From: Adineta vaga
Lineage: Eukaryota; Animalia; Rotifera
DNA: 64,000 nucleotides
Reading direction: 5' to 3'
Assembly: GCA_021613535.1 (NCBI GenBank)
Contig: CP075495.1
Location: 682,001-746,000, forward strand
Position numbers and translations under genes: made by a program. Below the pieces are notes generated by a model. That model was given only the letters and a program-made list of their open reading frames with translations, did no database searches and was not told where the DNA came from. Shown in pieces: positions 11,056 to 37,818 of the stretch (position 1 is the first letter of the stretch; the number at the start of each line of letters is the position of its first letter).

Positions 11056-11778
11056 TTAACACTTCAGAAGAAACTAATTGCTTAGCTATATAAGTCTTAA
11101 TCTTGAGAATTGTTTTCATTTTGAAAAGTTAGGTTTTAATAAATGACGAAGAAAAAGATTTCTCACATATTATCTCTTAAGAGACATTACCATCTGTGTA
11201 TTGTAAAAAATTTAATGAAAGAAAGCTTCTTGCGAAACTTCATGTATATAGTACCGATAACCGATGACGACATTTTAATAGTTGTTGTCGTGGATTTCGT
11301 AATAGCTTCTTCGATTATCTATGAAAAAGTCATTTGATATAACTAGATCTATAGTTACCATAAATATATTGAGAATATAATATGAAGATGTGCATGTTAA
11401 TGATGAAATATTTGGAAATGAACGTATTCAACTAGTTTTAATTTAAAACAAGTATTTCTCTTCTGTTTTATTTAAAATGCAATCAATGATCGACTATGTT
11501 GAAATATTTCACCGATCTTTTTAAGCTGACTAAAAATAATCATTTAAGTGGAAATTTTTATCTGTTCTTTGAAAACGTGTTCTATTTAATCTACGCATTA
11601 ATAAATCAAAGGCGGAAAACGGTTGTTAATTCATTAAAATAATACAATATCGGTTTTCTCTCATCCTTTTCATCAGTATTATAATCATATAAAACAGTTG
11701 GAAACTTGTTAAGCTATTATTATTTTATTCCGCTAACACAAAAAGAGACGCAGCTTCGTAAAGTATAAAGCAAGAGTG

Positions 11779-12726
11779 ATGTCGACTTTAGAAGATGATT
11801 CTTCTTCACAATGGCGAATGGTTATATTTGGAATATTATTAACTGGTGAAATATTATCTATTCCTTGTTATTTATTTCTCCTTTATCATTTTATTCGAGA
11901 GAAAGCTTTACGAAAAAATCTTCAAAATCATTCCATTCTTCTTTTATTGATTTACAATTTTATTCAAGTGACAATTGATTTATCAATGTACTTGAATTTT
12001 TTTCGACATGGATATTATACTTTATTCTATATACCTCTTTGTTATCTACAAGCGTACGTTGCTTATGGAATTTTTTCTGGCGCCCTTCATATTACGTGTT
12101 GGATTTCCATTGAACGACATCTCTTCATCTTTCATTCTAATCTTCTTCGAACAACACGTCGCCGTATTTTATTTCATTACATTCCACTTGGATTCGTTTC
12201 ACTTTATGCACCAGTTCTTTATTTCTATTGGATTATTCTTTATCCTTGTGAACGTATTTATGATCGATATTCATTTGCTTGTGGTGTTGTTTGTTACTAT
12301 TATTCAACTCCTGAATGGTTTTCTCAGTTTGAATTAATCGTGAATTATGTTTTGTCCGTTCTAATGATTGCGATATTTAGTTGTGGTTTATTTATTCGTG
12401 TTCTCATACAAAAACGTCGTTTACAACAAGCAATAGATTGGCGTCGTCAACGTAAAATGATTATTCAATTAATATTAATTTCAAACATTTATCTTGCTTT
12501 CTATCTGCCATTTGTTATTGGTTATATTATATCATGGTTTGGTGTTAGTTCTTTTTATAACAGTAGTTTTGCAAAGTACTCTGTGGTAGCTGCATACTTT
12601 CCTGGAGCTCTAATACCTTATGCAAATCTATCTGCTTTGCCTCAATTGAAACAGAAGTTTCGTGCAATAATGTTTTGGAAACGGCAAACACAGGCAGCTG
12701 TCGTTCCGTTTACAAGACACATTTGA
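11779..12726 (+). CDS. Single-exon rhodopsin-like 7TM GPCR
   Basis: 315 aa, seven TM segments, WISIERH motif. Confidence 0.9.
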   Translation: MSTLEDDSSSQWRMVIFGILLTGEILSIPCYLFLLYHFIREKALRKNLQNHSILLLLIYNFIQVTIDLSMYLNFFRHGYYTLFYIPLCYLQAYVAYGIFSGALHITCWISIERHLFIFHSNLLRTTRRRILFHYIPLGFVSLYAPVLYFYWIILYPCERIYDRYSFACGVVCYYYSTPEWFSQFELIVNYVLSVLMIAIFSCGLFIRVLIQKRRLQQAIDWRRQRKMIIQLILISNIYLAFYLPFVIGYIISWFGVSSFYNSSFAKYSVVAAYFPGALIPYANLSALPQLKQKFRAIMFWKRQTQAAVVPFTRHI

Positions 12727-13379
12727 AATCGAATCATATTTACTGACAATAATTTCATTTATTAAACTATATTTTTGTTGTTCCATGAAATGAAAGTATA
12801 CATTCTTTTAAATAAATAATTCTTGAATATTGTGCGTGTTTTCCCGGTAAGAAATAGTCTGCATTCTTTTCTGTTCAATAAATTGTTGAAGAACAGACAT
12901 TCAACTAGACAAGATGTGTATCATTTTTACATTGAATATTTATTTTGTTCACTGGTGACTTCTATTTTCATACAGAGAAAAATCAAATACTTGGGATTTT
13001 GTTCATCAACTAAATGAAATAACATATTCTACATAAATAATTTCGATTAAAAATCCAATTGATCGAAAAGAAAGAAAAAAGATCACTATGGACTAAATAT
13101 TTTGTATATGTTTTCTTATGATTAAGAACGAAAGAAAAAGAAGAAACTGCATCCATTTATTTGTAGCACGGCGCGATTTGAATACTTACATTTTCATAAA
13201 CAAGTCTTTATTATGTCTGATTTACCAACAAATTCTTCTCGAGTCAAAATCACACTTGTTATTGGTATCAGTATATATGAAAACGAAATTCTACTATAAT
13301 GACGCAAATGAGATTTCTTATTCATCATGGAGAAGCAAAATTAAACTTAAAACGCAAAGAATTTCAGTCAATAGACAAC

Positions 13380-14010
13380 GATGATAGTATTTTATTTTAT
13401 TTTGCTGGATATGGATCACAATGGGAAGTATAAGATGAAGAATGATTTGAATACAAATTGAAAGTATTATTTAATTCCATCGAATGATTTAAAAAAAGAA
13501 AATATTCAATGAACGGGTTCTGATTTGCTTTTTCTTAGATTATTGTCGAACTTATCGTTTTTATAATTCTTTAAAAGCTAGTTCATTAATTGTATTTGCA
13601 CATGTGCACCGGAAACAAATGCTAATGATGGAAAGAATGAAGAAACATATGGATTATTTACAAAATATCTTCTTCAAAACCAAATGAAGATATTGAAATA
13701 CTTTTATGTCGTGTTAGAAAATAACATACTATGGAAATTCTATTTTAAGATATAATCATGTTTATTTATTCAATGAAAAAAAGGTAAAAATAATTCTATT
13801 TTCTATTTCTTTGTTTTCAAGAAGAAAAATGAAATGTCGAAATTTCGAATCTGAATATTTCAATAATTAGAAATGATTAACGAGAGATCTTAATGTCTAC
13901 AAACACACCCACACCCTCAAGATTGGAATCATCGAATAATGCGTTGGTGTAAAGATAAGAAAGAAGATGAAATAATGGTTGGTAAAAATGAATTAAATCA
14001 ATTATCCTAC
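13380..14010 (+). pseudogene. Decayed caspase(C14)-NHL gene
   Basis: DDSILFYFAGYGSQW (compare LVLFYFSGHGYQ), YYLIPSND, SLIVFA..APETNANDG..GLFTKYLLQ..NEDIE, then the NHL fragment WNHRIMRWCKDKKEDEIMVG at 13924-14010. Confidence 0.75.
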
Positions 14011-14189
14011 TTGAATGCTCTCGGCAGTATCCTCGTTGTTATCTTCGCTTTCATCACTCTCAAGAGAAAAACTGTAATTCATATTGACAGAGTTGCATAA
14101 CAACATTGACTTTGTAAACTATTTTGTGATTATTCGAGAAAGAAATTTTAATAAAATAAAAACTATTCATAAGTTTTCGTAAAACAAAT

Positions 14190-14940
14190 CAAGATTTTAT
14201 CTTCAAGAAAAAGATAGACAAAGATTATATTCTTTTTCATCCGGTTTTCATTCAAGTCAAAGCTATAAAGCTGATTTATTATTTCCACCAACAATAACTT
14301 CACCTTGTTTTTCTCCTTCACACCAGCGCATTATTCGATCATTGAGACTATCTGCTACGTATATTTAACCCAAACAATCGACTATAACTCCTTGTCGAGC
14401 ATCTTTTTTCCATTCCATTACACGATGATTTTTCATGTCGGATACATAAACCGATTGTTCATCATCAACAAAAATGTACGTAGGACAATTGAGTTGATGA
14501 AAAGCGTCTCCTTGCCTATAGCCACTAGCCACTATTATTCCTTCCTTTTCCTATTTTCCATCTTCTTACTTCATCTTTTTGCCAATTAGAGACATAAAGA
14601 TATCCATATTTATCCATTGCCATACCCCAACAATCAATATTTTTAATGAGAATTTGTTGATTTTGATTTGATCATCGAATGACGTGGTTGTTCCCTCGAT
14701 CTGCGATAATCAATGAATGATCTTGTTGATCAACAGTTAAAGTTGTTGGATCCTGTAATTTATTTCTATCTGCAATAACTTGTTTCTGTTTTGTATTATA
14801 GTTTCATTTAACAACACGATTATTTCTTGAATCAACAATATAAATATTTTTGTCTTGAATAAAAAATGACACGTGGAATTTGTTCCCTAAGCGATTGTTC
14901 AAAAACATCATTGGTAACATCGCTTAATACCATTCTCAAC
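14190..14940 (-). pseudogene. Decayed NHL-repeat propeller
   Basis: TVDQQDHSLIIADRGN and VDCLG*IYVADSLNDRIMRWCEGEKQGEVIVGGN, with stops and frameshifts. Confidence 0.85.
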
Positions 14941-15294
14941 ACCTTCATACATATGTTTTTTATGTATCAGAATGGCTATCTCTCTTCATGATTCGTTTCA
15001 ATAATAATAGTAGAAGTATGTCTGTGAAACAATGTTCTATTCAAAACATACAAAATATATATAGAAATACTGTTATTGATACTGTACAGAATCAGAAAGT
15101 TATCATAAATGTGTATGACGACGATAAATTTAATTATGTAAAGCTGACTGCGTTTGAGGGTTAGTGTGAGAATCAACCGATAGGTAGTATTAATTATATA
15201 TAAGTTTGTATAAACGTGAATGTGAAAATAAAACATGCTTATTCAGCTACATAGTCATTTTTATTTTCAAAAACTGATTGTCATTCACGACTGA

Positions 15295-15480
15295 ATTCAA
15301 ATCTTTGGATTCGATTATTTCCAAAATCAATAACATACATATTTTTATTGAAATCAAATGATAAATTAGTTAGATGATTTAATTGATTTCATTTCCACCA
15401 ACAACAATTTTATACCTCCTTTCCCTCCTTTAGACCAATACATGACTCGATGATTATCACAATCTGGGATAAAGATTCGA
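15295..15480 (-). pseudogene. NHL-repeat fragment
   Basis: IFIPDCDNHRVMYWSKGGKGG then IVVGGN in a shifted frame. Confidence 0.7.
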
Positions 15481-15911
15481 TGAAAATACTCACCAAACAT
15501 GTTGAGAGTGTGTCGGTAATGATACATCTTTATTGAACACGCACACACACACACCGTAATGGATCAGTTCATGAAGGTCTATAATCATAATTAATATTTA
15601 TCACGCCTATGAGAAGAAAATATGAATACAAAGATTTTTCTGTAAAAGAAAATATTTCATAATCTGACAACTCTAAGAATATAATATCATTGATGCATAT
15701 AAAAATGAAGAAAAAAATCCGACAGGAATAATTGTCGATTGTCTCTTAAGGAAGAAAAATGTCAGAGAGATTTTCTTTCCTGTTCGCATCAAGTAAAAAA
15801 GAATAATGATATGTAGTTTGCTCTTGTCTTAATAAAAAAAAGAGATTGCCGTAAAAAGTAGTCTTATTAACACTTTTTCATTCTTCATTTTAAGAAAAAA
15901 GACGCAAAAAA

Positions 15912-18726: not shown

Positions 18727-20543
18727 TTATGATGTATCGATATCAAATTTTTGAACACGATCGTTACTACAATCAACAACATAGAGACGACCTTCACGAT
18801 CAATAGCAACACCTGTTGGACAACTAAATTGATTTGATTGTTTTCCTCGTCCTTTTTCTCCAACGACAATACTTCCTTCATTTGCACCTCGTAACCAACG
18901 TACAATTCGATGATTATAACAATCAGCAATATAAATACTTCCAAAATGATCAACAATAACACCTTCTGGATGAGATAATTGTGTAAGATTATTACCTTGA
19001 CCATGTCCACCAGCAACAAGAATACCTTCTTTAGCATCTTTTTTCCATTTCATAATTCGATTATTATTTCGATCAGAAACATAAATTGAAAGTTCATGAT
19101 CAACAAAGATAAATGTCGGAAAATTTAATTGATTTAAATGATCACCTTTTCCATTTCCACCCGCAACAATAGTTCCATATGTTTCATTTTGTTTCCATCG
19201 TCGAACTTCATTATTTTCTGTATCAGATACATAAAGATCTCCATAATAATCAACTGTTAAACCACAACAATTTATATTTGATATAATTGTTTGTTGATTT
19301 AAACGATTACGACGTGAACAACGAACAACACGTCGATTTCCATAATCACAAATAATTAATGAATCACTTATTTTATCTACAATAACATCCGTTGGACGAT
19401 TTAATTGATCTGAACGATTTCCTTTTCCATTTCCACCTGCAACAACTTGTCCATTATTTGCACCACATTTCCATTCAACAATTCGATGATTTCCAAGATC
19501 AGCTATGTAAATTTTATGTTCATTTGTTTGAATACCAATTCCATGTGGACAATATAATTGATTTGTTTGTGTTCCATTACCATATCCACCTGCAATTGTT
19601 GTTCCATATTGTTTCCATTTGGTATTAATTTCTAAATTTTTCGAAAGAATACTTCGTGCTAAAAGAACAAAAATTATCTGAATTATTCTTTAAAAAAAAG
19701 AAATTCAATATCTTACCAAGATTAGCTAAAGGTGTTTCATTTAAAAAGACATGTCCACGTCGATATAATGCATTGATACTTAATGGTCGTTGTCTCCGAT
19801 TACTTTCTTCGAAAACATCAGCAGCAATACCTTGAAAAATTTGAACAATATCTTCATTAGGATTTGCAATATGTTTTAATAAATGTTTTGTAAATAAACC
19901 ATTTCGTTCATCATCTAAACCATCACTTGCTGTTTGATCAGCATCACATGCAAATTGTATAAATGTTCCAGCAGGAGATTTCATTGTATGTAAACCTTTA
20001 CCTTCTGTTACAGCTAGAAGAACAAAAAAAAGTCATTTGTTAGAAAGAATAAACATTGGAAATTTAAAGAAAAGAAGAGATAAAACCTTTAGGTTTTGGA
20101 CTTCGTTTTGGCCAATATAATCGACAACAATCAAGAATACATATTGTAACATAGGAAGAAGTTTTTTCTGCTAATCTTTTAATTGTACGTTCAACCGGAA
20201 TAGCAAAATCTTCAACATCATCTTCAGTTTCAATTTGTCCATCATCAATTGGCATAAGATAATTTGTTCCTTTAATTTGATAACCATGTCCAGAAAAATA
20301 AAATAAAACTAAATCACCATCATTGATTGTCTTAGAAAAACTATTGATTGTTGCAATCATTTGTGAACTTGTTAGATCAAGTTTTGTTGTCACATGAAAA
20401 CGAATATTTGATAAAATTTCACTAAGATCATTCGCATCATTATTACAATGACGAAGTTTACTTTCTGGTCGAATATAATTATTATTTCCAATAACAAGTG
20501 CTAATTTTCGACGAGGATGTAATGTTCGATGGATTGTAGCCAT
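18727..20543 (-). CDS. Caspase-family (peptidase C14, paracaspase/bacterial-like) domain fused to a 6-bladed NHL propeller; exons 20543-20087, 20013-19717, 19658-18727
   Basis: KLALVIGNNNY, catalytic FSGHG and ILDCCR, p10-like FIQFAC...NGLFTKHLL, NHL repeats AGGNG.G....QL..P. Splice phases are consistent. Confidence 0.92.
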
Positions 20544-22835
20544 GAAGTTTTTATCTCAAAGTTAAGAAAAAAAAAAGAAAAGTACAAGGCAATATCGATG
20601 ATTTCTGACATGACACTCAAAAACGATCCAATCAAAGGACGATGAATACGCGACAAGTATGAAGATGCACTTGTTTAATTATCTCCTTGAGTATTAAATT
20701 GTACTCTTTCCATCAAATGAATATATTTTCATCAATGTCTTTTGTATTTCTCTCTGTCTCACTCAACTCATATTCATTTATTAAAAATAAATATAATAAT
20801 AATAATAATAATCATCATTATTCAATACATTACTTGATCATTAGACGTATCTCTTAGAAGAGAAAAGAACGAAAGTGCAATGATGAGTTAAACACTGTCA
20901 ATGATACACATAATGTACATGGACACAGGAAAGAGAAGGGAGAAAAAAAGAGAACGGATTGTCAAATAAATACATCACTATTGAACTATTGAAGCGCTTA
21001 CATATTGACTTGTGAATAACGATGTGACGTCAGTGTCATTGCTTGGTGCGAGTGATACACGTGGGTGTGTCAATATCAAACAGGAAGAAAAAAATGATAT
21101 TGAAAAGCAACTTATCGTCAAGGAATAGAAATGTTTGTATAATTGAATAAGGTTATCTTATAATTTGTGAGAATTTATTTCTCATTAAGTAAATCATAAG
21201 CTAAACGACACAAATATTTTTATTAATTTATCAGATTAGTTCTTTTCAGTGTACTCAAATAGTGAATATAATATTATTAATATAATCCTTCTGACTAACT
21301 ACAAAGCCAGACATTTACGAAATTTCAAAACTACTGGTCATTTGAGACATTTCTAAACATCTTGGTTTCTGGATGCAGTTTTTGTGCATTTTGAGACTTT
21401 TCTAAATTATCGAATAATTGAACCTTTGATTGGTTTTATAATAAGAATTGCAACTCTCGATGTATATTTCATAATACTTTCATTGTTATGTTTAATAGTC
21501 AATTTAGAATTATACTTATCGTTAATTTCAATGTATTTATTTTCTCTTTTGTATTTTATTATATTTTGTATTTGAACATTTTTATGTGAATTTCTATAAT
21601 TCAAGAAAATGTTCATTTGTTTCATGTATATTCTAATATTAATGATTATAATTTCGATTAATTTTACTTCGTTGGATTAACTATATTTAATTATATAAAT
21701 AACATAAATTATTTTATGTATTTTTATTAAATATCGATTGAATTTCATAACGATACATTTAGTTCTTCAGTAGAATGTCATATTTTATTTTAATTCAAAT
21801 AGTTTCGTGTTCATCAACGGATAAGTTTCTTGTTGGAAAATTGAGAAGAACATTTGAATTAATTTTAGATTTAGTTTTGATAATTTCATTTCTAAGAATA
21901 ATTCTTTGATGAAAACTTTCTAATAGAACAATTTTGTGAAATCTTTTATGTTGATCGATTTTTAATTTATATAAAAAGTAAATGATGAATTAATATTATT
22001 TCGATCAAAAATATTGATATTTGAATGATTCACAGTCAATAAAGATATTTTTGTTTTACAGTTACTTTCGTAAATGACGCGTTTCATCGATCAACTCTAC
22101 AATCATTTGACTTTCTTCGTTTTCATTTCTGTGAATATTTTTTCTGTTCTTTCGTCATTCGTTCGTTGTTTTTCTCTGTTAAATTCTTAATTTGTTAAAT
22201 ATTCTTTTATATTTTTCATTTTGAAAATAATATCTTCGATCATTTCATCAATCAAAATAAACTCAAATTCAACAAAATTTAAATAACTTTTCCATCCGAT
22301 TTCAACTTTTTTTTTTCTTCGTTTTCACTCGTAAAATTTGTTGAAGTTTTAAGAAATCACATCGAATTTGTCAAAACATTCGCAAAAAGAATCGTTTTTT
22401 AGAAATATTTCTTCAAACAACATTTACAAATAATTTTCTTCGAAAATCCTTCGAATCCAAATTAATATTTAATCATTTTAAATCGATATTTGATCAAAAC
22501 AAATTCTTTTTTTTATTTTCAAAGAAACAAAATTATCAAAAACACAAAATCTTTGATTCAACGAACATTTTTATCAAATCAAAACATTTCTTCTGCATAA
22601 TTTCATTTCAATTTAATCAAAAATCATTTTTCACGACAAGAAAAATTCTTTGACAAATCAATTTCAGCGAAACAAATCAACTTTTTCATTTTTTTCCATT
22701 CTAAGTCTTTACAAAAAACTAAAAGATTTTCTCAATTTTATTTCGAAAAAAATCTTTTTTCTTTTTTAAAATCAAAATCAAATCAACAAAAATCGTTTTT
22801 TATCAAATCTTTTCGTTTGAAATACAAAGTTCATT

Positions 22836-24933
22836 TCAATGAATTTTATCAAATCGAACAATTCGATCATTTCCCCAATCTGAAACATAAAGATTTCCTT
22901 CTAAATCAAATGATAAACCAGAAGGACAATTCAATTGATTTGATTCACTTCCTTTACCATTTCCACCAACAACAATCTCCCCTTCTTCATCTCCTTCACA
23001 CCATCGCATTATTCGATGATTCCCACAATCTGCCACATAGATTTGATTCCATTCATCAACAAACAATCCTTCAGGACAATTCAATTGATTGAGATTATTT
23101 CCTTCATCATTTCCTCCAGCCACAACAATTCCTTCCTTCGCATCTTTTCTCCATTTCATCACACGATGATTCCAATGATCTGAAACATAAAGAGATTGAT
23201 CTTTATCAACAAAGATGAACGAAGGACAGTTGAGTTGATTTCTTTGATTTCCTTTTCCATTTCCACCTGCAACTAATATTCCTTCTTTGTTTTTATTAAT
23301 CTTTTCTAACTTCCATTTTCTCACTTCATTCTTCTCCCAATCAGAAACATAAATAAATCCATGTTGATCCATTGTTAAACGAGAACAATCAATATTTTGA
23401 ATGAGAATTTGTTGTTTTTGATCTCTTGACCATCGCATCACTCGGCTGTTCCATCGATCAGTAATGATGATTGAATGATTTTGTTGATCAACAATCACAT
23501 CTGTTGGCCAATACAATTGATCTATTCTCTCTCCTTGTCCATTTCCACCTGCAATGATTTGTCCTTGTTTTTCATCACATTTCCATTCAACAATACGATG
23601 ATTCCCATAATCAGCAATGAAAATGTTTTTGTTTTCATCAATAAAGATCCCTTCAGGGCCACAGAGTTGATTTAATTGATTTCCTTTTCCATTTCCTCCC
23701 GCAAGAATTGTTCCATTTTGTTGAAATTTCGTTTCTAAACAAAGAAAAGAAAAAAGATTTGTGAAAAAGAAAATTTTAAAGAAAAGAAAAGATTTGAAAT
23801 TGATGAAAAAACGAAAGATTTTCTTTTTGATTTGATTTTCATTCGAAATTGAGTTTGAATTTTTTGATTAAAAGTAAATGAGAAATGTTTGATTTATTTG
23901 AATCTTTGATTTTATTCAAAAAGAAACTTTTCTAAGAAGCTCTTTAGAATTAATTTTGTTCATAGAAAAGATTTCAATGAAAACAAATTTGATTTTAATT
24001 TTTTTCGAAGAAATTAAAGAAAAAAACCGAAAATTTTCTTTGTTTTTTGACGAGATTTGGAATAAGAAAATCATTCGTTTCTTTTGTTTTATCAATTAAA
24101 AGATCAAAGAACATCTCATTTTCTTTTTAATTTTCAAATATTTTGAGATTTATTTTGTTAAAAAGAAAAGATTAAATTGAAATGAATTTACTTTGATTTA
24201 TTTTAATTTTTGTTAAATTAATTTGATTTGTTGCTGTTGCTAATGAATCTTCATTATCTTCGTCATCATTAATTTCAATTAAATGAACAATATATGATCC
24301 ATTTGGATGATCTAATGCATTAGATTTGACACGAAATTGAGTTCCCATTGATAAAATAATTTCATCTTCATTTTCATATTCTGTATAACCCGATACTTTT
24401 TTTCCTTTTAATGCTTCAATTAAAAACATAGTTGATTTTTGATTATCTCCAAGAAAATGTTTAATAACATTAACAGATGATGAACATGAATTGATTGACC
24501 ACCAAGTTAAAAGTTGATTTTTAATAAAATGTTTTCCAATATCTTCAGGAATTCCTCTCCAAATAATTTCTTTAACAGTTGGTAATTTATTCAATGCAGA
24601 ATGAAATAATTTTAAATAAGGAAACCAAATTTTAATAATTTGTCTATTTTCATTTCTTAATGCTTGATTTAAAAGACGATATAAAGTTTGTTCACCCCAT
24701 TCCATTGTATAAATATAAATCGAAGCTGATTCATCACGTGTTAATCCATCTGAAGATGGATAATGACAATGTTTTTTTGCGATTTTTATATAATATTGTA
24801 ATTGATCAATTTGTGATTCAATTGGTTTTAATGCTTCATCAATTGAAACGAGTTTTTGACTTTGAAAACCATAAATTGGTGTTAATCTTTTAAATGAACA
24901 ATCAATATCACTAAAACGATTTTTTGTTGTCAT
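22836..24933 (-). CDS. ADP-ribosyltransferase (R-S-E class) fused to an NHL propeller, copy A; exons 24933-24192 and 23734-22836
   Basis: IYTMEW..LYRLLNQALR, WRG, SCS, ENEDEIIL. A 457-nt GT-AG intron joins in frame (NQ-K-TKFQQNG) to the NHL repeats. Confidence 0.92.
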
Positions 24934-27544
24934 TGATTCTTTTAATTGAGAGAAAGAAGATAAGAATAATCTAAAATAATTATGTGAATCATCATGAATT
25001 GTGAGTTAATGTTACTTATTTTACAATCAATATACTTTTATTGTGCGGAGTAACTTAAATTTAAATTCAAATTTCAAAAACGTTTCGTGAGATAAATATA
25101 TTAATTAATTTGTTATAACTTTTCTTTTAAGACGCATCAGAAAATAAATCATGAACGAAAGCGAAATAGGTGTATGGATGAGAGTCTCTCTTCTCAGATT
25201 CGAGTTGAAATTTAAGATGAAAAGATAAGGAAGTGGGTAAAAATTGATGTTCAAATGAGAATAAGACATTCAGGTACAGTATTAGATTTGAGTTTCAGTT
25301 CGAGTATGAATATGAATCTGTTTTGAACGATTCGACTGTATAATACGATCATGAAATATAAGATTCGAAATACAAATGAATCTCTTTTATTATTGGATCT
25401 TAGCTGAGATTTTTGTTTGTTGTTTGTCTATTTAAAAAATTCATAGAGATTCAATTTACTATTTGTTTCAAAAGACATTTTGTTGAATATTCTTGAACAT
25501 AATTTGTTCCATTAACTCTTAACGAGGACTAGAGATGTGTCTAATGATATAACACAAAACTTATCAAAAGAACAATATTCACTAAAGTAACAATTCATCT
25601 CTCCTTCGAAAATTCGTCTAATTAGAAAATGTTTGTTTTGAGATTCAATGAAAAACATTTATAAATATTTCAACTGTGTTTGACACTTCTATCGCTAAAA
25701 TCAATTTCTGTTCTGCGTGTAAATTTCTCCTCACCATAAACACGAAACGCATTAACTATCTTATATATTCGATTACTTAATTATTGTCTATATAGACGGA
25801 TTAGATTTGAAGAATATTGAATCTGTGTCAAATCTAACGATCTGATGTATTGTATACAATGAAGAGCGTATCCAGTAGAGTGATGAGTAACGGAATAATT
25901 GTATAAAAATGTACTTATCTACGACAACAATCCTTATTATGAATTATTAGTTTTCTCTGCAATTAAGTTGGAAAATACTCCGAAGAAGGAAAAAGAAAAG
26001 AAAATTTGCCGAGTTTTTAACTTGTTTTTACTATGAAGAGAAGCAAGAAGAAGGAAAAGAATATTTTCAAGCGTGGCAATGCAAATTTCAACGTAGAAAA
26101 AAAAAGATTCTTTTCAAAAAAATATATTAAAGTCATTCTTCATATGAAGACTTTTTTGACTGTGAAAAAAGAATTTTATAGAATAAAACTCACATCTTTT
26201 ACGCGTTCCGTTACACAACGAGTTTTAGTTTTATGATTCATTGGGAAAATTTGTGTAAACAAGAAATGAATTCACAAACAAAGTGTTAAAAGATGAGAAA
26301 AATTTTATTTTTGAATATATCAATAGGAGAATTAATATAAACAAAGATTTGATCTGTTTTTTTTAGAAGAGTTCTATAACTTATTCATAATAATTTTAGT
26401 TTAGTAAAATCATTCTTTTTCATTTTTCAATGAAATACATAACTTTATTTTAATTCGTTGATTTTTATAATAAATTCGAAAATATGTCGAGTTTTCTCAA
26501 TTTACTTTAAAAAATTAATATTAATACTTTAGTTTTACAGTTAGTTCTAATACTCCGTGTCTTTCTTTCTTTCTTTTATAACATATCGAATGTATCTGAA
26601 TAGATATCAATGTGTTCAATGTAACAAAATCTTTGACGATCGTTCATATAGTTGGAGCGAACTGTTGATTTTAATACCTAAACAAATATTTACTCTTTGT
26701 GATTTTATCGGTAATAGAAGAAATGAAATATTCTTATACGAGATCAGAATTTTTCAAATGATCTCATTAACTATAGTATAGTTAATGTGAGAGATAATGA
26801 GAAATATTGTTATGTAAGAAAATCAGATATGGAATTTAGTCTTAAAAATGAAACTATCAAAGTGTCATCGACTTCGTTCTACATAAAGATGACTTTGCCA
26901 TATTCATAATATAATTTTGTCATACATATTGTCTGCGCTGTGTATTGTTTTTGAGATAATCACAAAAGTTCGCAATGATACTTCAGTTTGATGAATGTAT
27001 ATAAAAAACTTTGCATTCTACATCATCATAATTTACATTTTATATGAGTTCGAGTGTCTAAACATTACTTTTTTTGACGAGAATATTTAGTCATGGGTTT
27101 TCATCAGGAGAATACATGACACATGTTTCTAATAGTGTAAAAAGGTATATCAATATATACTGTTTATTTTAATTTAGTGGTGAAATAGTGAATATTGTAG
27201 TGTACTTTTAGATATGTTAACAAGAACATACTGAATTTTCTAAAACCAATCCCATTGTTTGCTTTACGTCACACGATCTTATTCAAAATAATGGCGCAAA
27301 AGAACGGCGTTTTATTCAATCACATATTTTCGAATCGAAACGTACTTATTTGGAAGAATGTTGTGTTTTTGAAAGATCAGTATTGAACGATTACCTGATC
27401 TTGTTTACAACTGTTTTTATAACAATTCATGCTTTTGTCTGATTTATAATTTCAAACAACTTCTAGTAATTGGTGTGGGTATGGGTATGAGACTAACTCC
27501 AAATTCATTACCCTTACCGATACCCGCCCACACCCTCAAGATGG

Positions 27545-28070
27545 ACCAAAGGTCGGAATCTTACTCTTCATCAGTTCTTCATGTTGTTTATCAACCACTA
27601 ACCATAACCACTCATTCAACTTCTTGTAGAGAAACGATTCCATACAGTAAAGACGAACAAAGCATCCCCATAATTCTTTTCCAGTAAATTCCTTAATGTT
27701 TAGTAGCTGTTGTGCAACCCACTCTCCTTCCTTCTGTAATGAGTCCTTCGGCTGCTCTTTTGACTAACATGTGAATAGTGATATAGCGAACAAATATTCG
27801 CCATCGATATTGAAATGTTCTTCCGACAATGCGAAAACGGCGATGAAGGTAAAAGAAGATTGGGCATGAAGCGTTCTTCTCTTAACATTAATCGTTCTTG
27901 ACGATTATTGACCCGTTTCACAGGACGTTGATTGCTTGTATTGTTGTTGAAAATTTGGACGAGATGTTTGAAATTAATGTGATAATCATCAAGCAGCGTC
28001 TCGATGAACTTCTTCTGAAATGCCTCTTCTATTATGACCACTTCAACATCTGAGTAGCAACACCATTCGA
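27545..28070 (-). pseudogene. WWE-domain plus ART N-terminal pseudogene, truncated
   Basis: WCCYSDVEVVIIEEAFQKK...DYHINFKHLVQ..NQRPVKR (WWE-like), then frameshifted LVKRAAEGLITEG and VRLYCMESFLYKKLNE (ART-associated YT..S.LY..LN motif), cut off at KIPTFGP. Confidence 0.75.
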
Positions 28071-31000
28071 CGCGTCTTTAACGGAACGTTTGTGGAGATA
28101 AGTAATTAGCGTACATTTAGTCTGCCTCTGCAATATATATCGAGAATAGGTGAATGCGCCGAGAGCGATCAATGGCAAGTTAGATAGAAAGATAAACAGT
28201 TTTCAGTAAATTGCATTTTGAAAGTGTTGTTCATGTTAAAATAATCTTTAGGGTGGGTGGGTGGGTGGGTGTGGACGAAGGGTGAGCAGAGTAGTCAATG
28301 GAGCAGTAATTAGCGAAATCGAGTGGACTGGCCGAGCTCTACTTTAAATCAGTATGCACATGGTCGGAACTAACGAATCGATTAAACGATCGAAGAAAAA
28401 GTCGAATGATTTGCCAAGGTATGTCATGTATGCAAAATATAAAAGATTAACGACACACATATCAGTATAATAATCTGTGAATGTGTTTTTTCCGATCGTT
28501 AACGAATCGCCTCCGAAAACAAATATGAAAGAAATATCGTATAGAAAAGGAAGAAATATGGGGATAAACCAACAAGGAAAAGTGTAATAAATAGTGTAGA
28601 GAAAATGGTTTTGACTGAGATTATACAACTATGTGATTAGACATATCACTTCTTTACTCTTTCGTCAAACGGACACTTCGTAAAACATCTCTTTTTAGAT
28701 AAATGTGAATTACATAATACCACATTGTTGCTAATCATACAACATTCGATTTCAATCGAATTTATACAGCAGAAGATGAACACAGATGATTTTTGCTCAT
28801 GGTAATATAGATTTCAATGCAAGGTTGCTAATCTATCAAGAACACTCTGCCAAAGTTATGAATATAGATGAAACAGTTGGACTTATAAATGTTGAAAATA
28901 TTGATGTTAAGTAACGAATGCAAAACTGCGTTGATTTTCAAGTAATAAACTCCACAATTGTTCCCGAATAAAGTCTTTTACAATGTTCTGACAAACACAT
29001 CAAAGATCTTTCCAATATGATCAAAGATATGTCAGTAAAAGAGATAGATAGACTAAGAAATAATATATGATTAGCAATGAATGACTTTTTATTGGAATTA
29101 CCAGTTGTTTCTGTTGCTTTAATTGTAGTTACTTAAAATTAACATAAAGATGAAATAAAACTTCTTTAAATCAAACAAATCTCGATAATTTCAAAGAGAT
29201 ATGTGCACGAGTGAATCAAACAATGCAATTGAATACGAAATATACGAATACAATACAAATCATAAATAATTTAATAATTAAAATCGATGATATTATTCAA
29301 CGACTTGATCTAACTGGAGATCGACTTTTCTTCAGTTAATTTTCATTCTAAGAAAAAATTTATTAACAAATGTTAAATTAGTTGTTCGTTTAATTATATA
29401 TATTTTCTCTATGTCAGTCATTTTTAATGTTATCATAGTTGAATTGACAAAAACAAATGTCTAAATGAATAAATTACAAAAGATTTGAATTGTTTTTCTT
29501 ATTAAATATTATCTATTTAAATAAATATAAATTTATTTTCATTTACAAAAATGATTTAATGAAATTCTTTTAAAATAATATTTCAAATTATTGTTGAAAG
29601 ATAAAGAAAATCTCGAGATTTAAGAATTCTTAATAATAATAATAATAATAATCATTTGGAATCTTATCTGTTTATTCATCGATATACTTTTCAGATTCTA
29701 TAAAGACACTAAAAAGAATAGAATCTTCTAAAAGAAAGATAAAAATACATATTTAATTTATTAAAAAATTCTTTCGAATAAAAATAGAATTTTATTTTAA
29801 ATTGACAAACGATATTTTATAGATTTTATTTTTATTAAATAAAGAAAAATATTCTTTGAAAAATCTTTGTTATATTTGAGAAGAAATCATTTCGATAAAT
29901 AATAAAATTATATTTTTGATTTGTATTTGTTTAACATTAGAAATCTTTGAATAAAATATAAATAACATTTAGTTTAGATTTGAAAGAATTTTCTTTGAGT
30001 TTTATTTTTGATAAAAAGAAATAATTAAAAAAATAATATTTAAATATTTCCAAATTGATTTATTAAAATGAAGAAAAAAAGATTTTTTATTTTCTTTAAA
30101 ATAAATGATCAAATCATTTAGAAAATATTGAAAATAATGATTTATTTAAGATAAAATATTGTTGATAAAGATATTTATTATTTTACAATGAAAAAAATTG
30201 AAGAATTTATTTTCAATTTTCTTCTTTTCAATTATTTCAATTTGTTCGATATTTATTTATGAAAATATTTTATTTCACAATAATTTTACAATTATCTTTG
30301 TTTTATTTTGTTACTTTTATCATCTGTTCGTTGTTTTTATCTTTGAATTCTTTATTCGTTAAATATTCTTTGATATTTTTCATTTTAAAAATGAGATTTT
30401 CTCTCGATAAACATGATCATCAACAAATAAAGTTAATTTAACAAAAAATTTAATTAGACAAAAACTATTTTCTGTTCTTTTCTCTAAATTAATCATAATC
30501 AATGATCATTTTCATTGAAATCTCTTTGACAAAAATCTTTTCAACAATTTTTATAACGAAATGAAATCTTTCTCGTATTTCCATTTCAAATAATGAGTTT
30601 TGTTGATTTGTAGAATAGAAAAGACAAATTGATGTTGATAAAGAGAAGAATGATAATGTTAAAAATAAAAGACAAAACAAATTCTTTGTTTTTCAAATGA
30701 CAAATAATTGAAATTATTAAAAAGTTTTTATTCGAATTAAATTAAAAAACATTTTGATGAAAATCTTTTTATTCTTTTCATTAAGATTAATAAAACTTAA
30801 ATTCTTATAACAATAATAAATATCTTTAGATTCTTCTTTTTCAAATTAAAATATTAATTCGAATATCTTCGATCATTTCATCGTTTAAAATAAAATCGAA
30901 TTTAACAAAATTCAAATATCTTTTTCATCCGATTTCAATCTTTTTTTTTTCTTTGTTTTTACTCGTCAGCTTTACTAAATTTCTATGAGATCACATCGAA

Positions 31001-31488
31001 TTTGTCGAAATGTTCACAGAAAAAATCATCTTTTAGAAATATTTCTTCAAACAACATTTACAAATAATTTTCTTCGAAGATCCTTCAAATCCAAATGATT
31101 GTTTAACCATTTTTAAATCGATATTTGATCAAAACAAAGAATTTCATTGATAAATCAAATTCTTTTTCGTTCTTTTCCAAAAAACACAAAAGTCAAAAGA
31201 AAATCTTTGATTCAACGAACATTTTTATCAAATCAGAACATTTATTCTGACACATCTCATTTCAATCTAAACAAAGATCATTTTTCAAGACAAGAAAACT
31301 ATTTTAACAAAGCAATTTCATCGAAACAGACCAACTATTCCTCTTTGTTCATCGATGTTCTTTTACGAAAAACAAAAGGATTTTCTCAATTTTATTTCGA
31401 AAAAATCTTTTTCTTTTTTTAAAATCAAAATCAAATCAACAAAAATCGTTTTTTATCAAATCTTTTCGTTTGAAATGCAAAGTTCATT

Positions 31489-33586
31489 TCAATGAATTTT
31501 ATCAAATCGAACAATTCGATCATTTCCCCAATCTGAAACATAAAGATTTCCTTCTAAATCAAATGATAAACCAGAAGGATAATTCAATTGATTTGATTCA
31601 CTTCCTTTACCATTTCCACCAACAACAATCTCCCCTTCTTCATCTCCTTCACACCATCGCATTATTCGATGATTCACCGAATCTGCCACATAGATTTGAT
31701 TCCATTCATCAACAAACAATCCTTCAGGACCATTCAATTGATTGAGATTGTTTCCTTGACCATTTCCTCCAGCCACAACAATTCCTTCCTTCGCATCTTT
31801 TCTCCATTTCATCACACGATAATTATCTCGATCTGAAACATAAAGAGATTGATCTTTATCAACAAAGATGTGAGTAGGACAGTCGAGTTGATTTCTTTGA
31901 TTTCCTTCTCCATTTCCACCTGCAACTAATATTTCTTCTTTGTTTTTATTAATCTTTTCTAACTTCCATTTTCTCACTTCATTCTTCTCCGGAGCAGAAA
32001 CATAAATAAATCCATGTTGATCCATTGTTAAACCAAAACAATGAATATTTTGAATGAGAATTTGTTGTTTTTGATCTCTTGACCATCGCATCACTCGTCT
32101 GTTCCCTCGATCAGCAATGATGATTGAATGATTTTGTTGATCAACAATCACATCTGTTGGCCAATACAATTGATCTATTCTCTCTCCTCTTCCATTTCCA
32201 CCTGCAATGATTTGTCCTTGTTTTTCATCACATTTCCATTCAACAATACGATGATTGTTATGATCAGCAATGAAAATGTTTTTGTTTTCATCAACAAAGA
32301 TTCCAACAGGACGAAAGAGTTGATTTAATTGATTTCCTTCTCCATTTCCTCCCGCAACAATTGTTCCATTTTGTTGAAATTTCGTTTCTAAACAAAGAAA
32401 AGAAAAAAGATTTGTGAAAAAGAAAATTTTAAAGAAAAGAAAAGATTTGAAATTGATGAAAAAACGAAAGATTTTCTTTTTGATTTGATTTTCATTCGAA
32501 GTTGAGTTTGAATTTTTTGATTAAAAGTAAATGAGAAATGTTTGATTTATTTGAATCTTTGATTTTATTCAAAAAGAAACTTTTCTAAGAAGCTCTTTAG
32601 AATTAATTTTGTTCATAGAAAAGATTTCAATGAAAACAAATTTGATTTTAATTTTTTTCGAAGAAATTAAAGAAAAAAACCGAAAATTTTCTTTGTTTTT
32701 TGACGAGATTTGGAATAAGAAAATCATTCGTTTCTTTTGTTTTATCAATTAAAAGATCAAAGAACATCTCATTTTCTTTTTAATTTTCAAATATTTTGAG
32801 ATTTATTTTGTTAAAAAGAAAAGATTAAATTGAAATGAATTTACTTTGATTTATTTTAATTTTTGTTAAATTAATTTGATTTGTTGCTGTTGCTAATGAA
32901 TCTTCATTATCTTCGTCATCATTAATTTCAATTAAATGAACAATATATGATCCATTTGGATGATCTAATGCATTAGATTTGACACGAAATTGAGTTCCCA
33001 TTGATAAAATAATTTCATCTTCATTTTCATATTCTGTATAACCCGATACTTTTTTTCCTTTTAATGCTTCAATTAAAAACATAGTTGATTTTTGATTATC
33101 TCCAAGAAAATGTTTAATAACATTAACAGATGATGAACATGAATTGATTGACCACCAAGTTAAAAGTTGATTTTTAATAAAATGTTTTCCAATATCTTCA
33201 GGAATTCCTCTCCAAATAATTTCTTTAACAGTTGGTAATTTATTCAATGCAGAATGAAATAATTTTAAATAAGGAAACCAAATTTTAATAATTTGTCTAT
33301 TTTCATTTCTTAATGCTTGATTTAAAAGACGATATAAAGTTTGTTCACCCCATTCCATTGTATAAATATAAATCGAAGCTGATTCATCACGTGTTAATCC
33401 ATCTGAAGATGGATAATGACAATGTTTTTTTGCGATTTTTATATAATATTGTAATTGATCAATTTGTGATTCAATTGGTTTTAATGCTTCATCAATTGAA
33501 ACGAGTTTTTGACTTTGAAAACCATAAATTGGTGTTAATCTTTTAAATGAACAATCAATATCACTAAAACGAGTTTTTGTTGACAT
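31489..33586 (-). CDS. ADP-ribosyltransferase-NHL fusion, copy B; exons 33586-32845 and 32387-31489
   Basis: Direct duplicate of copy A at offset 8653 with the same motifs and intron. Confidence 0.92.
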
Positions 33587-34900
33587 TTATTCGTTTAATT
33601 GAGAGAAAGTACGGAATTGTTTTAGAATAAAATTTTCGTTTTTCTTTTCAGATATTAAAAAAATAAAAGAAAAAAGTTCGATTAGAGTTTTACATAAAAC
33701 AAATGCGCATCTTACTTTGATAAAATTCTTTGTTTTTTTTTCCAACATAAATAAAAGATAAATGAAAAGATTCTCTTTTTCTTTATCATTACTTTCTTAT
33801 CTCTATTCGAAGAAAAAAAGAAGAATATATGAGTAAAGATATGGGTGAGAATAGACGAAGATTTGATTCGAAACAAGAATAATTACGTTCAAGTTTCGAT
33901 CAAATGAATAGCGGGTCGTTGGACTCTGAGAGAGACTTCCAATACATGTGTAGTCGTTAAAAAAACACCGAGATATTTTCAGAAAAATAAGAAATCATCT
34001 ACACAGATACAACCGATATAGAACAATATGTATTTTAAAAAAGTCTACCAACCAATTGTCTTTGAATTTCGTATAAAATGAAAGAAATCAATAACTAATT
34101 TTTGTCCGATGTTCTGATAGAGAAAAATATGCATATGTAAAAGTCATTACAATGTTGAGGGTGTGGGTGTGAGTAATACTCTTCTCTTCATCCTCACCCA
34201 CACGCGCAATAAAAATCAAATAAACAAATTGTCTCATTGATTTTTTTTTTCATAATATATTTCATATAGATCGCAGATTGTCTTATATATTCATTTTCAT
34301 GTTCTTGATAAGGATAATTATAATTATAATAAAACAAAACGAGATCATTACGTTGAATATTTTCAATGAATTTATCAATTTTACGATTGTATCTAAATCT
34401 TTAGAAACATTGATACAATACTGTAAAGGATCGGGTTGATACGCATTAATTCTAATAATCAATGCTATTTTCCGTTGATAAATACAAGGAAATAACAAAT
34501 ACAAAGGTTTGTATGAGTGAAATACTCCAAGTTAAATAGCTTCATAACTTTTCTGTTTACAACTTGACAGAACCGAAGAACAAAAATTTCACAGACATAA
34601 GTCAAATCGAAATGTTGAGAGTTAAAAAGCGTACTTTCAACACATTTTCTTTGTTTTTTTTTAACATGAAAATTAATCTTCTACTCGTATTCTATTGACA
34701 TATGATATATTTTATCAGAAGATAAATTCCATATTGATTGAAAGATTATATCTTCTATTTTGTGATTGAAATCTAAAAACAACAGATTATTTCAACCAAT
34801 ATTTATGTTCGATATTTATGTCGTTTTCGTCAATATAAATTAGACCTTTTTCTCGCTTGTTGATACTCTCCTAAAAAAATTCGTTTTATCTATTTTTAGA

Positions 34901-36187
34901 ATGCATAGTACGTACGCACTTCTGTTTCGATATTTTTCTCCGAATATTTAAAAATCTTCTTTCTTAGCTTCACCATCTTCAGTCGATCAACGTAAACGTC
35001 GCATCAAACAAATATCAACAGGATTGTGTATATTCCTATTTATTCTATCCTTAGTATTTCCTATCTACATCGTGATAAAAACCACAAAAAATCCTATAAA
35101 TACAATTATTAAAAAGAATATTACAACCGATAGAACAAAAACTATTGCCATTTCAAAACCCAGTTTGGCACAATATTCACAATTGTATTCAGCATATCCA
35201 GAAAAATTGAAATGTCCATGTAGTCAAACATCAATGAACTACGATGAATTTCTTACTATTCAACCTGTATTTCATCAGATCTGCAGTAGTGTTTTCGTCA
35301 CACAAGACTGGATTGATAGCCTTAAACATACTGATCCAAAACTTTTTATTGATGATTTTCGAGTAACAGGTTCACATACATTTCAAGCATTACATACATT
35401 ATGCGAAATGAGTGGCGAGACAGTTATTTTTGAAATAACACAATTCTTTCATAGTGAATTTCTTAATACATATGTGATGAACAAAGATTTATTTCAAATG
35501 AAAATTATGTCACGAATTGGAGAACTGACTAATACGATAAACCATAAATTTGGATTCTCTTTTCGAAAGATACAAAATCTCATTGAAGCCAATGTCTTAT
35601 TCTCTAGTTTACAAACAAATTACCAACTACTCGTACAGAATAACACTATACTTTCATCTCCTGTTACTTATAATGAATGCAGTTGTACTTCTTCGTCAAA
35701 ATGTATTAAACAAACTGCGATTTACGACTATTCAAGTGGCAATATTTTATTCCGAGTACCGGGTTTCTATACCGGTTGTTATATTATTGAATCATTACTT
35801 CAATCTGATCTTCGATGTTTTTATAACCAAACTTGTATCAATCATCTGCTTAGTTATCTATCTTCACCAATGAATGTCATACCTTTGAATCATTTGTCTT
35901 CAAATGGAAACCATGAGAACGCAACTATTCAGACTCTTTTGACGAATTTAATGATCGACCAATGGAAGACATCAATCTCTTATGAGAATTATTATCACCA
36001 ATGTAATCCAGAAGAATGTACTTTTACAATTGAAAAGCCAGAGACAATTGAGACGATAGAAATAATTCAAACAAGAACTGATTTCGTATATATGATTGCA
36101 TTGATTATTGGTATCATTGGTGGTATTATATCCATCTTACAATTTATCATACCTCCATTAGTCAAACTCGTTTCTAATGGAAGTTAA
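34901..36187 (+). CDS. Two-TM protein with large Cys-rich ectodomain (CPCS / FHQICSS / DFR family), paralog 1
   Basis: Micro first exon 34901-34907 and intron to 34967 give an in-frame join. N- and C-terminal TM helices; conserved Cys pattern. The start is tentative. Confidence 0.8.
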
Positions 36188-36534
36188 GAATAATGACTTT
36201 ATAGAATCGATGTTTTTGCAACACGGGAAGCTTTACATTCGAATATATTTGCTTTCATAGTTTCAAAATAAAAACATGATTGTGAGGAAAAGAGATATCT
36301 ATATTTGTTTGTACTATCGGAAGTATTGTATATCTCATATGAACACCGATAATTAAAAAAGAAAGAGAGGAAACGAATAATTTATTACACATCAATAAAT
36401 AAAAACTTTCTCATTGAGAAAAACTATTTTAAAAATAATTATTTTAAAGAGTTTTACTTTTTCTACTGAGAAAAACGATAGTTATTCAGATTTTTGTTCA
36501 AAATTTCTGTTGTCAGTTCTCTGTAAACATTACA

Positions 36535-37818
36535 ATGGCAAAAGTCGTCTCAATAAATGGTAGGTGTTCACTTTATGTTTTGATGTCTTTTTCCCTTATT
36601 ATATATTTAGCTGTACCATCTACAGTCGATCAACTTGAACATCGCATAAAAAAACTATCAATAGAATTCGGTATTACTTTGTTTATCCTATCATTGTCAT
36701 TTCCTGCGTATATCGTGATGACGGCTGTGCAAGATCCACTGATTACAAATGTTACAAATGATGTAACAAAGAGAATTGTTGTCCAGATTCCTAGTTTCAC
36801 TCAATATATACAATTGTATTTAACATATCCACTGACACTAGAATGTCCATGTAGTCAAGCATCGATATACTATGATAGATTTGTTAAAATCAATACAATA
36901 TTTCATCAGATCTGCAGTAGTATATTTCTATCTGAAGAATGGATAAATTATTTTGCAAACAGTAATATGCCACTTTTTGCCGATGATTTTCGAATGACAG
37001 GTTCATATGCATTTCAAGCTTTGAGAACATTATGTAGACTAAGTAACGAGACATTCGAACATAATTTAATGAAATTTCTATCGGATGAATATATTAGTCT
37101 AAATGTTCTTCCTGGCGCATTATTTCAATCAATAATTCAGATGCGAGTTAATCAGTTTAAATTATTTAACATTAAAAGTTTTTCATTATCTTTCTCAATG
37201 ATTCGTGGAACCATTCAAGCCAATGCTTTATTGTCTGGTTTACAAACAAATTATCGATTAATGGCACAAAACAATGACGTGTTTTCAATTCCTAATGATT
37301 ACAATAGATGTTCTTGTTCGGTTTCTTCAACATGTATTGCTCAATCTATGATTTATGACTATCCAACTCGTACTAGCTTATTTAGTGTACCAGGATTTTA
37401 TACAGGTTGTTATATTATTGAATCATTACTTCAATCTGATCTTCGATGTTTTTATAACCAAACTTGTATCAATCATCTGCTTAGTTATCTATCTTCACCA
37501 ATGAATGTCATAGCTCTTGACGGATCAATGATGAGTAACTATTTTAGAAACTCAACTATCAACGATCTTCTTCAAAACTTAATGCTCGACGATTTAAGAT
37601 TAACAATAGATTATGAATCTTACTATGAACAATGTCGACCAAAACTTTGTAGTTATACAATGGAAATGTCTCAGACAATGGAAATAGCTCAAATAGTTCA
37701 AACAAAACGTGATATAGCCTCGATAATTGGTTTAGTTATTGGTATCATTGGTGGTATAATAACCATCTTACAGCTTATTATACCACGATCTGTCAAACTT
37801 ATCATTGGTGGTGTTTAA
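36535..37818 (+). CDS. Two-TM Cys-rich ectodomain protein, paralog 2
   Basis: Tandem paralog with a probable 51-nt in-frame intron at 36560-36610. Confidence 0.85.
   Translation: MAKVVSINGRCSLYVLMSFSLIIYLAVPSTVDQLEHRIKKLSIEFGITLFILSLSFPAYIVMTAVQDPLITNVTNDVTKRIVVQIPSFTQYIQLYLTYPLTLECPCSQASIYYDRFVKINTIFHQICSSIFLSEEWINYFANSNMPLFADDFRMTGSYAFQALRTLCRLSNETFEHNLMKFLSDEYISLNVLPGALFQSIIQMRVNQFKLFNIKSFSLSFSMIRGTIQANALLSGLQTNYRLMAQNNDVFSIPNDYNRCSCSVSSTCIAQSMIYDYPTRTSLFSVPGFYTGCYIIESLLQSDLRCFYNQTCINHLLSYLSSPMNVIALDGSMMSNYFRNSTINDLLQNLMLDDLRLTIDYESYYEQCRPKLCSYTMEMSQTMEIAQIVQTKRDIASIIGLVIGIIGGIITILQLIIPRSVKLIIGGV

Follow-up and report, generated by a model that had tools for sequence, protein, structure and literature searches.

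A tandem pair of ADP-ribosyltransferase-NHL genes in Adineta vaga whose differences fall mainly on the top face of the propeller

In Podospora anserina, a fungus, the NWD/HNWD genes (het-d, het-e and het-r) carry a propeller that undergoes concerted evolution and is positively selected at the d-a loop and the b-c turn of each blade, and it was also described that members of this family join a common propeller to different N-terminal effectors (PMC1805685, PMC4986451; statements on published work, here and below, cover the accessible part of each source). Here we describe two genes, copy A and copy B, that lie in a 64-kb stretch of the genome of Adineta vaga, a bdelloid rotifer (assembly GCA_021613535.1, contig CP075495.1, 682,001-746,000 of the forward strand; this whole stretch is called the window, and all coordinates are positions within it) and that each join an ADP-ribosyltransferase (ART) domain to an NHL beta-propeller. 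Like NWD/HNWD, the A/B family varies in the same two loops of each blade, as judged by the 28 of 31 amino-acid changes that lie on the top face, by peaks of entropy among relatives and by a nonsynonymous divergence (dN) of the face 3.9 times that of the flank, and it too combines different heads (ART, caspase, DED and B-box/coiled-coil) with a shared recognition propeller. Unlike NWD/HNWD, A and B have an NHL and not a WD40 propeller, are without a NACHT/NB-ARC switch, and keep six fixed, diverged blades, with exchange between genes occurring in blocks and little of it between blades; moreover, the likely alleles of the rotifer family are static at the face, the host is an animal and not a fungus, and no allorecognition role is shown. 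By analogy the family appears to work like the Podospora NWD/HET-E receptors, but it is not a member of that group, since it has no NACHT domain, an NHL in place of a WD40 propeller and no near-identical repeats.

A second precedent is found in the primate LW/MW opsins and the RHD/RHCE genes, where the intron and most of the coding sequence are homogenised while divergence is kept at selected sites, and peaks of divergence between duplicates were described as a signature of gene conversion acting together with selection (PMC3924837). Copies A and B resemble these duplicates in having what looks like a homogenised intron and scaffold, with divergence at sites that are probably under functional selection. 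They differ from them in showing 16 small peaks within one 900-nt exon, 17-95 nt apart, which would need unusually short tracts, and in belonging to a family that has hundreds of members and interchangeable heads.

The two domains are also known separately. Like the enzymes of the ARTC clade, A and B keep the R, S-x-S and E-x-E motifs. Vertebrate ecto-ARTs carry a signal peptide or a glycosylphosphatidylinositol anchor, whereas A and B have no such anchor, no secretion or translocation module and a propeller fused at the C-terminus; no signal peptide, hydrophobic signal or membrane stretch was found in either protein. With the TRIM-NHL proteins (Brat, LIN-41/TRIM71, TRIM2/3, Thin) the pair shares the six-bladed NHL fold and a top surface predicted as the binding site, and many rotifer family members have a B-box-like/coiled-coil head. 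Nevertheless, the N-terminus of A and B is an ART domain without RING, B-box or coiled coil, their blades carry a GGNGxG insertion that sets them apart from TRIM-NHL, and the faces of canonical TRIM-NHL proteins are conserved and not hypervariable.

The gene pair and the top face of its propeller

When the window was compared against itself, a single 2.75-kb direct duplication was found (22229-24956 / 30862-33609), which holds the two genes (Table 1). Each copy is 2098 nt long, and the two align without gaps with 48 nucleotide differences: two in the ART exon (codons 2 and 5), one in the intron (23848) and 45 in the 899-nt NHL exon, where they cause 31 amino-acid changes and leave two silent codons (276 and 460). 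The first-pass annotation of this DNA had reported an ART exon differing only in its first five codons, one difference in the 457-nt intron and, in the NHL exon, about 45 substitutions with about 31 amino-acid changes and about two silent codons; these counts proved accurate, and all the loop motifs that it quoted are present in A and B. Homology extends just 23 nt upstream of the ATG (ending at 24956 / 33609), and on the 3' side near-identity is limited to about 60 nt past the stop, after which the flanks are diverged.

Spliced copy B is identical in sequence to the protein record P0005 (A. vaga I4U23_005867). The splice joint 23734-24192 (457 nt, CT..AC) occurs in contigs of sequencing runs X11 and X12, with no intron cover there, and was not seen in contigs of the DNA runs X1 and X2; the library kind of X11 and X12 is guessed or unknown, and their contigs do not separate A from B. 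The letters of copy A at 23649 are absent from the contigs of all four runs, those at 23660-23662 were not seen in contigs either, and the letter at 23462 is unseen in the contigs of one run of the four, although contigs drop variants, so that this is no proof of absence.

Table 1. Coordinates of the A/B gene pair and of related NHL genes in the window
Feature	Coordinates	Strand	Evidence or remark
Copy A exon 1: ART (ARTC-type ADP-ribosyltransferase) domain, phase 1 end	24192..24933	-	Pfam ART E=3e-9
Copy A intron: 457 nt, GT..AG, phase 1	23735..24191	-	Splice joint in X11, X12 contigs
Copy A exon 2: six-bladed NHL beta-propeller	22836..23734	-	Pfam NHL E=6.5e-34; AlphaFold2; Foldseek
Copy A 3' flank, partner of copy B flank	22229..22835	.	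73/600 diverged plus indels
Copy B exon 1: ART domain	32845..33586	-	Pfam; spliced B = P0005
Copy B intron: 457 nt	32388..32844	-	A/B alignment
Copy B exon 2: NHL propeller	31489..32387	-	A/B alignment, Pfam
Copy B 3' flank, partner of 22229-22835	30862..31488	.	Window self-comparison
Three-exon caspase-like (Peptidase_C14)-NHL gene with His and Cys motifs	18727..20543	-	Intact, 2.3 kb from copy A
Broken NHL gene remnant of A/B family, frame-shifted pieces	13877..15563	-	

The ART-NHL anatomy that had been proposed is supported by Pfam and by the predicted structure, and the R-S-E motif is intact, with R126, S149-C150-S151 and E189-D190-E191 as its residues. Among 83 relatives R126 is kept in 80, S149 and E189 in all 83 and E191 in 82, and the motif columns overall are kept in 79-83. 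R-S-E enzymes with E-x-E are of the arginine-modifying type, and the heads of A and B are predicted to be arginine ADP-ribosyltransferases of the R-S-E class; a weak sequence match links them to PDB entries 6dre/6drh and 4xzj (E 0.01-0.08). The ART exon is joined to the propeller via a linker of about 25 amino acids, and neither the Pfam scan nor the protein length leaves a P-loop (NACHT/NB-ARC) domain in A or B.

AlphaFold2, run with a 115-row alignment, predicted exon 2 as a six-bladed propeller (predicted local distance difference test score 95.5), the blades being four-stranded, bearing the NHL repeat signature and diverged among themselves. By Foldseek the closest folds are Pizza6, Thin and the NHL domains of TRIM2/3/71, with template-modelling scores of 0.78-0.81 for TRIM-NHL. 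The d-a and b-c loops are by definition the top, ligand-binding surface of an NHL domain (PMC4015489). When the variable sites were mapped on the predicted structure, the top loops and adjoining strand ends were found to hold 28 of the 31 changes but 128 of the 298 residues (p=1.7e-8), the limits of the top-face class being set by the analyst on the strands of the model. The proposal that the changes lie on the ligand-binding top face is thus supported, and they cluster on one face of the propeller. A narrower set of 35 face sites (P-2, P-1, P+1, D+1, D+2 and GNG-x-G) contains 22 of the 31 changes; because that set was chosen post hoc, the test on 128 of 298 residues is the cleaner of the two.

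A separate observation concerns cysteine, which copy A has at five of the 21 most variable face sites and copy B at one. Only two of 147 relatives have at least five Cys at those sites. In copy A they stand mostly at the P-1 position of several blades, where they might form a thiol ring.

A bdelloid family with hypervariable faces and swappable heads

A and B belong to a large bdelloid family with a hypervariable propeller top face. The propeller gave matches to 5420 proteins at E<=1e-40, the best 120 of which are all from Adineta or Rotaria, while a search of representative sequences placed 1647 clusters in the ART family at E<=1e-10, and 431 A. vaga genes carry the arginine-ART Gene Ontology (GO) term (PMC11258130 supplement). 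In an alignment of 160 propellers (of 169 tried), the sites that differ between A and B have a mean entropy of 2.35 as against 0.94 elsewhere (p=9e-11), and paralogues at 12-20% backbone divergence differ at about 75% of their face sites. In 147 de-replicated domains the residues most frequent at the face are Y (12%), G (11%), S (10%), N (9%), R (7.5%), C (6%), W (6%) and F (5.5%), with P at 0%. Antibody paratopes have a similar residue composition.

The same propeller was found behind ART, caspase, DED, B-box/coiled-coil and secreted heads, the B-box/coiled-coil assignment being partly the analyst's reading of the sequence together with UniRef names. In a FastTree phylogeny of 163 domains the propellers cluster by species with head types interleaved, and the head label changes 13 times on the tree (23 ART and 66 B-box heads) as against 20.5+-1.4 times after shuffling. 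Within the window, the phase-1 intron ahead of the NHL exon is common to the ART-NHL and the caspase-NHL genes, and the propeller of the caspase-NHL gene is 58% identical to that of copy A. Outside it lies a second A. vaga caspase-NHL protein (I4U23_005852, here P0602), with a propeller 86-87% identical to A and B, which differs from A at 22 of 33 face sites and 13 of 252 backbone sites, and from B at 26 of 33 and 14 of 252. Since P0602 shows this against B, the face-only pattern is independent of copy A.

Rotifera-only ART-NHL clusters exist in a protein-cluster atlas, where they have automatic names only. In the literature searched, mostly without subscription papers, neither ART-NHL proteins of bdelloids nor an NHL domain with a hypervariable face was found described. 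The one mention that turned up places NHL among expanded repeat families possibly involved in defence (PMC3846280), and the accessible parts of PMC12220480 and PMC5916493 hold nothing further on the family. No tandem pair was found among five metagenome loci, four of them alleles of one gene. In bdelloids the ART head was also seen fused to MORN, kinase, septin-like GTPase, RRM/YTH, HEAT/ARM, FG-GAP and alpha/beta-hydrolase domains.

Origin of the face-restricted differences

The duplication that gave A and B is old and not new, because the duplicated 3' flank is 12% diverged (73/600) with indels, whereas the ART exon differs at 2 of 742 and the intron at 1 of 457 positions. The backbone described as invariant in the first-pass annotation is indeed nearly identical, and homogenisation by conversion would explain this better than a new duplication. 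At the age of the flank and without homogenisation about 20 silent differences would be expected in exon 2 outside changed codons, and two are seen. In a count of minimum silent steps, the surroundings of a differing face site (up to two codons away) have 4 changes per 52 silent sites and the rest of the exon 0 per 134 (p=0.006); the silent rate beside the face changes is close to the 12% of the flank. The dN of the face is 0.51 and the divergence of the flank 0.133 (ratio 3.9), which suggests selection on the face at about four times the neutral clock. Furthermore, 19 of the 22 face differences between A and B are one nucleotide step apart, as against 61+-9% in 10,209 older paralogue pairs, so that the two faces seem to have diverged stepwise from a shared ancestor.

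On balance we favour the following course, with somewhat better than even confidence for the whole. An old tandem duplication within the family would have given copies A and B, short-tract gene conversion between them would homogenise the enzyme exon, the intron and the propeller scaffold, and diversifying selection would hold the two faces apart. Block swaps between paralogues would yield chimeric propellers, head swapping would re-pair propellers with different effector domains, and the resulting proteins would combine recognition with an effector function in the cytosol, most likely for defence. The pattern would then be explained mostly by known population-genetic processes. Block chimeras are seen in A. 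steineri, although these are protein records from short-read assemblies, some of which may be chimeric: P0017 and P0511 have identical ART domains (0/219) with their differences confined to residue 456 onward, P0027 and P0524 differ in residues 264-408, and P0105 and P0302 differ mainly in 274-354, a mosaic that is present in two records. The earlier proposal of strong selection together with exchange among paralogues is supported in this sense, and the family-wide data strengthen it beyond the pair itself.

It could be argued that A and B were made identical, over the span from codon 6 to a point shortly beyond the stop, by one recent whole-gene conversion or by re-duplication onto an older copy, and that a fast burst of positive selection at the face codons followed, at an omega of the order of 100 relative to the intron. 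Such a history would fit the near-perfect ART exon and intron (1184 nt) and the roughly 60 nt of identity beyond the stop, both to be expected from one long tract, as well as the Poisson-like number of differences per face codon and the one-step excess of 19/22. Nonetheless we consider it rather unlikely, since the four silent changes sit beside face changes and none elsewhere (p=0.006 within the exon, 8e-5 against all neutral sites), and point mutation plus selection does not predict such clustering. In addition, the face is static in likely alleles at 2-10% backbone divergence, where 188 of 207 pairs differ at less than 10% of face sites.

These likely alleles also bear on the possibility that a dedicated process diversifies the face loops, either by templated patches from NHL paralogues, as in chicken immunoglobulin conversion, or by a site-focused mutator. 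Several observations would suit such a process. The differences form dense patches that include silent changes (7 in 21 nt at codons 272-279, 5 in 14 at 416-420 and 3 in 11 at 457-460); at 457-458 B reads G-Q, the motif most common in the family, against the rarer D-E of both A and P0602; every NHL position is covered by dozens of related contigs in the runs of this genome; the same residue recurs in the GNG-x-G loops of one protein more often than by chance (319 vs 267+-13, p=0.001); and the A-like and B-like stretches of P0602 come in blocks (6 runs, p=0.06). On the other hand, saturated donors would not give 19 one-step differences out of 22, no donor was found within the 64-kb window, and blade-to-blade sharing is not enriched in seven of nine site classes, the P and D loop sites among them. 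The likely alleles of 29 clusters (9 Rotaria/environmental, 10 A. steineri and 10 further), which stand for loci other than A and B in other species, have no face-focused variation, and only 10 of 343 close pairs, which are not independent (25 groups), reach 25% face divergence; these fall in four groups, two of them block chimeras and the others the A. vaga set and P0200/P0212. Faces appear static within a locus and divergent between paralogues, and a dedicated diversifier is on this evidence quite doubtful.

The codons themselves gave no sign of special mutagenesis. The face codons with 0, 1, 2 and 3 differences number 13, 13, 7 and 2, where a Poisson distribution gives 13.6, 12.9, 6.1 and 2.5, and the 10 of 31 codon changes that involve more than one base are as many as independent single changes give. 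GC-rich third positions at face codons are not clearly enriched (6/30 and 7/33 vs 38/253 and 37/253), and the substitution spectrum (AG14, CG8, GT8, CT7, AT5, AC3, with flanking AAT codons unchanged) has no adenine-specific or GC-rich signature. Site-focused mutagenesis, special swaps of 2-3 nt per codon and GC-rich codon use, all suggested by the first-pass annotation, are not supported by these comparisons, and its idea of donors for the variable patches gave, within the window, no donor longer than chance. A diversity-generating retroelement was considered and rejected, as there are no adenine-specific changes and no template in the window; no reverse transcriptase was found among 33 open reading frames scanned with Pfam. 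A bolder version, a propeller immune repertoire without NOD in which a germ-line process would copy very short patches into the face loops while exon shuffling re-pairs heads, we likewise hold to be improbable. If true, it would be an immunoglobulin-conversion-like diversifier that takes the place of sex in the contest between bdelloids and their parasites.

Finally, the identity of the ART exon and intron might come from assembly collapse or polishing, or A and B might be alleles laid in tandem. The runs contain one more ART copy that is not in the window and is about 4% diverged, with 5 differences in 126 nt, and no contig spans the 1071-nt identical stretch or a whole copy, as such an artefact would allow. 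It is nevertheless very unlikely. A and B are not haplotype duplicates, because homology stops on both sides, 600 nt into the downstream flank and 23 nt before the ATG. Depth in the assembly-type ART arm exceeds that in the variant arm by 1.3-1.5x (370 vs 275 in X1, 36.6 vs 25 in X2), with the unique upstream of copy A at 250 and 27.7 respectively, a contrast that hints weakly at more than one locus. Real face differences stand 20-95 nt apart, and no artefact could remove the silent differences between them, while B against P0602 gives the face-only pattern without copy A. As to the diverged ART-NHL copy itself, comparison of runs X1, X2, X11 and X12 with 24095-24964 gave an intron variant with indels and an upstream variant of its own, and the copy was also present in intron-free contigs.

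Several points weigh against conversion with face selection, the reading that we prefer. Under a simple model the tracts would have to be no longer than about 60 nt, as it predicts 2.7 silent differences for tracts of 30 nt, 5.2 for 60 nt, 8.7 for 120 nt and 13-16 for 300-1000 nt, compared with the two that are seen, and this is shorter than the reported allelic tracts. For A. vaga, conversion tracts ranging from about 100 bp up to a few kb were described, together with unequal crossovers (PMC13564844). A dN/dS test had been suggested; the dN of the face exceeds the divergence of the flank, but the NHL exon as a whole has a Nei-Gojobori pN/pS of 1.5, which is not significant (p=0.45). The p-value of the 35-site face set is not independent, as the set was drawn after the pair and the entropy had been seen, and the window holds no donor patch beyond chance outside the gene's own blades. 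Lastly, the likely alleles are without face polymorphism, unlike the major histocompatibility complex or het loci under balancing selection.

Possible function and neighbouring genes

The A and B products may be cytosolic proteins whose face binds a variable, probably non-self ligand, upon which the head would modify or kill. The caspase and DED heads carried by the same propeller fit defence, and if the preferred account of their evolution holds, a role in immunity is moderately probable. What speaks against this step is that, after fungal attack, the arginine-ART GO term was enriched only among down-regulated candidates for horizontal acquisition; the down-regulated arginine ARTs number 6 at 7 h and 19 at 24 h in A. 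vaga and 8/366 in A. ricciae (PMC11258130; supplementary file 14, with 12 of the 16 supplementary files searched and identifiers not tied to A or B). The accessible main text of that paper does not mention NHL or ADP.

The same evolution might have served another function, in which the propeller would target a constitutive ART, caspase or TRIM-like head to varied host, symbiont, RNA or dietary ligands, with no sensor switch and no anti-pathogen role; this competes with the functional step only. It would agree with the missing nucleotide-binding switch domain, with the lack of arginine-ART enrichment among infection-induced genes in the GO tables, and with solved NHL relatives, in which this face is the binding site for RNA or host proteins (PMC4015489). 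Targeting of this kind is possible but less likely than defence, as the hundreds of paralogues, the paratope-like face, the lineage-specific turnover and the death-type heads are what conflict systems typically show, and saturated face diversity would be superfluous for a housekeeping role.

It is a long-standing question how animals that have been asexual since ancient times keep up with their parasites. In this family concrete loci and sites can be named, and with them a likely mechanism (ectopic conversion, block exchange and head swapping, with selection acting on one binding face) that could give a clonal animal new recognition specificities; A, B and P0602 form a natural controlled set with nearly the same scaffold, different faces and two enzyme heads. 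The family further suggests that animals have a large class of cytosolic R-S-E ARTs without a described role.

Other genes of the window were noted in passing. Between copies A and B lies a fragmented WWE-domain gene (27536-28077, minus strand; Pfam WWE E=3e-7); WWE domains bind ADP-ribose chains. Two tandem genes for seven-transmembrane-like receptors (9554-10487 and 11586-12766, plus strand) show patchy divergence, from 0 to 15 differences per 100 nt, and may be another conversion mosaic; the first has a 243-nt deletion and a frame break. A further tandem pair (34952-37818, plus strand; 69% DNA identity) encodes membrane proteins without Pfam matches, with two predicted transmembrane stretches and a Cys-rich loop. 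From 46994-49090 (plus strand) to about 56680, two NHL propeller exons are followed by REJ, polycystin and PKD-channel domains, possibly as one NHL-polycystin gene. A GMC oxidoreductase-like gene with two long open reading frames occupies 6680-8813 (plus strand), and GMC oxidoreductase genes in bdelloids are often of foreign origin.

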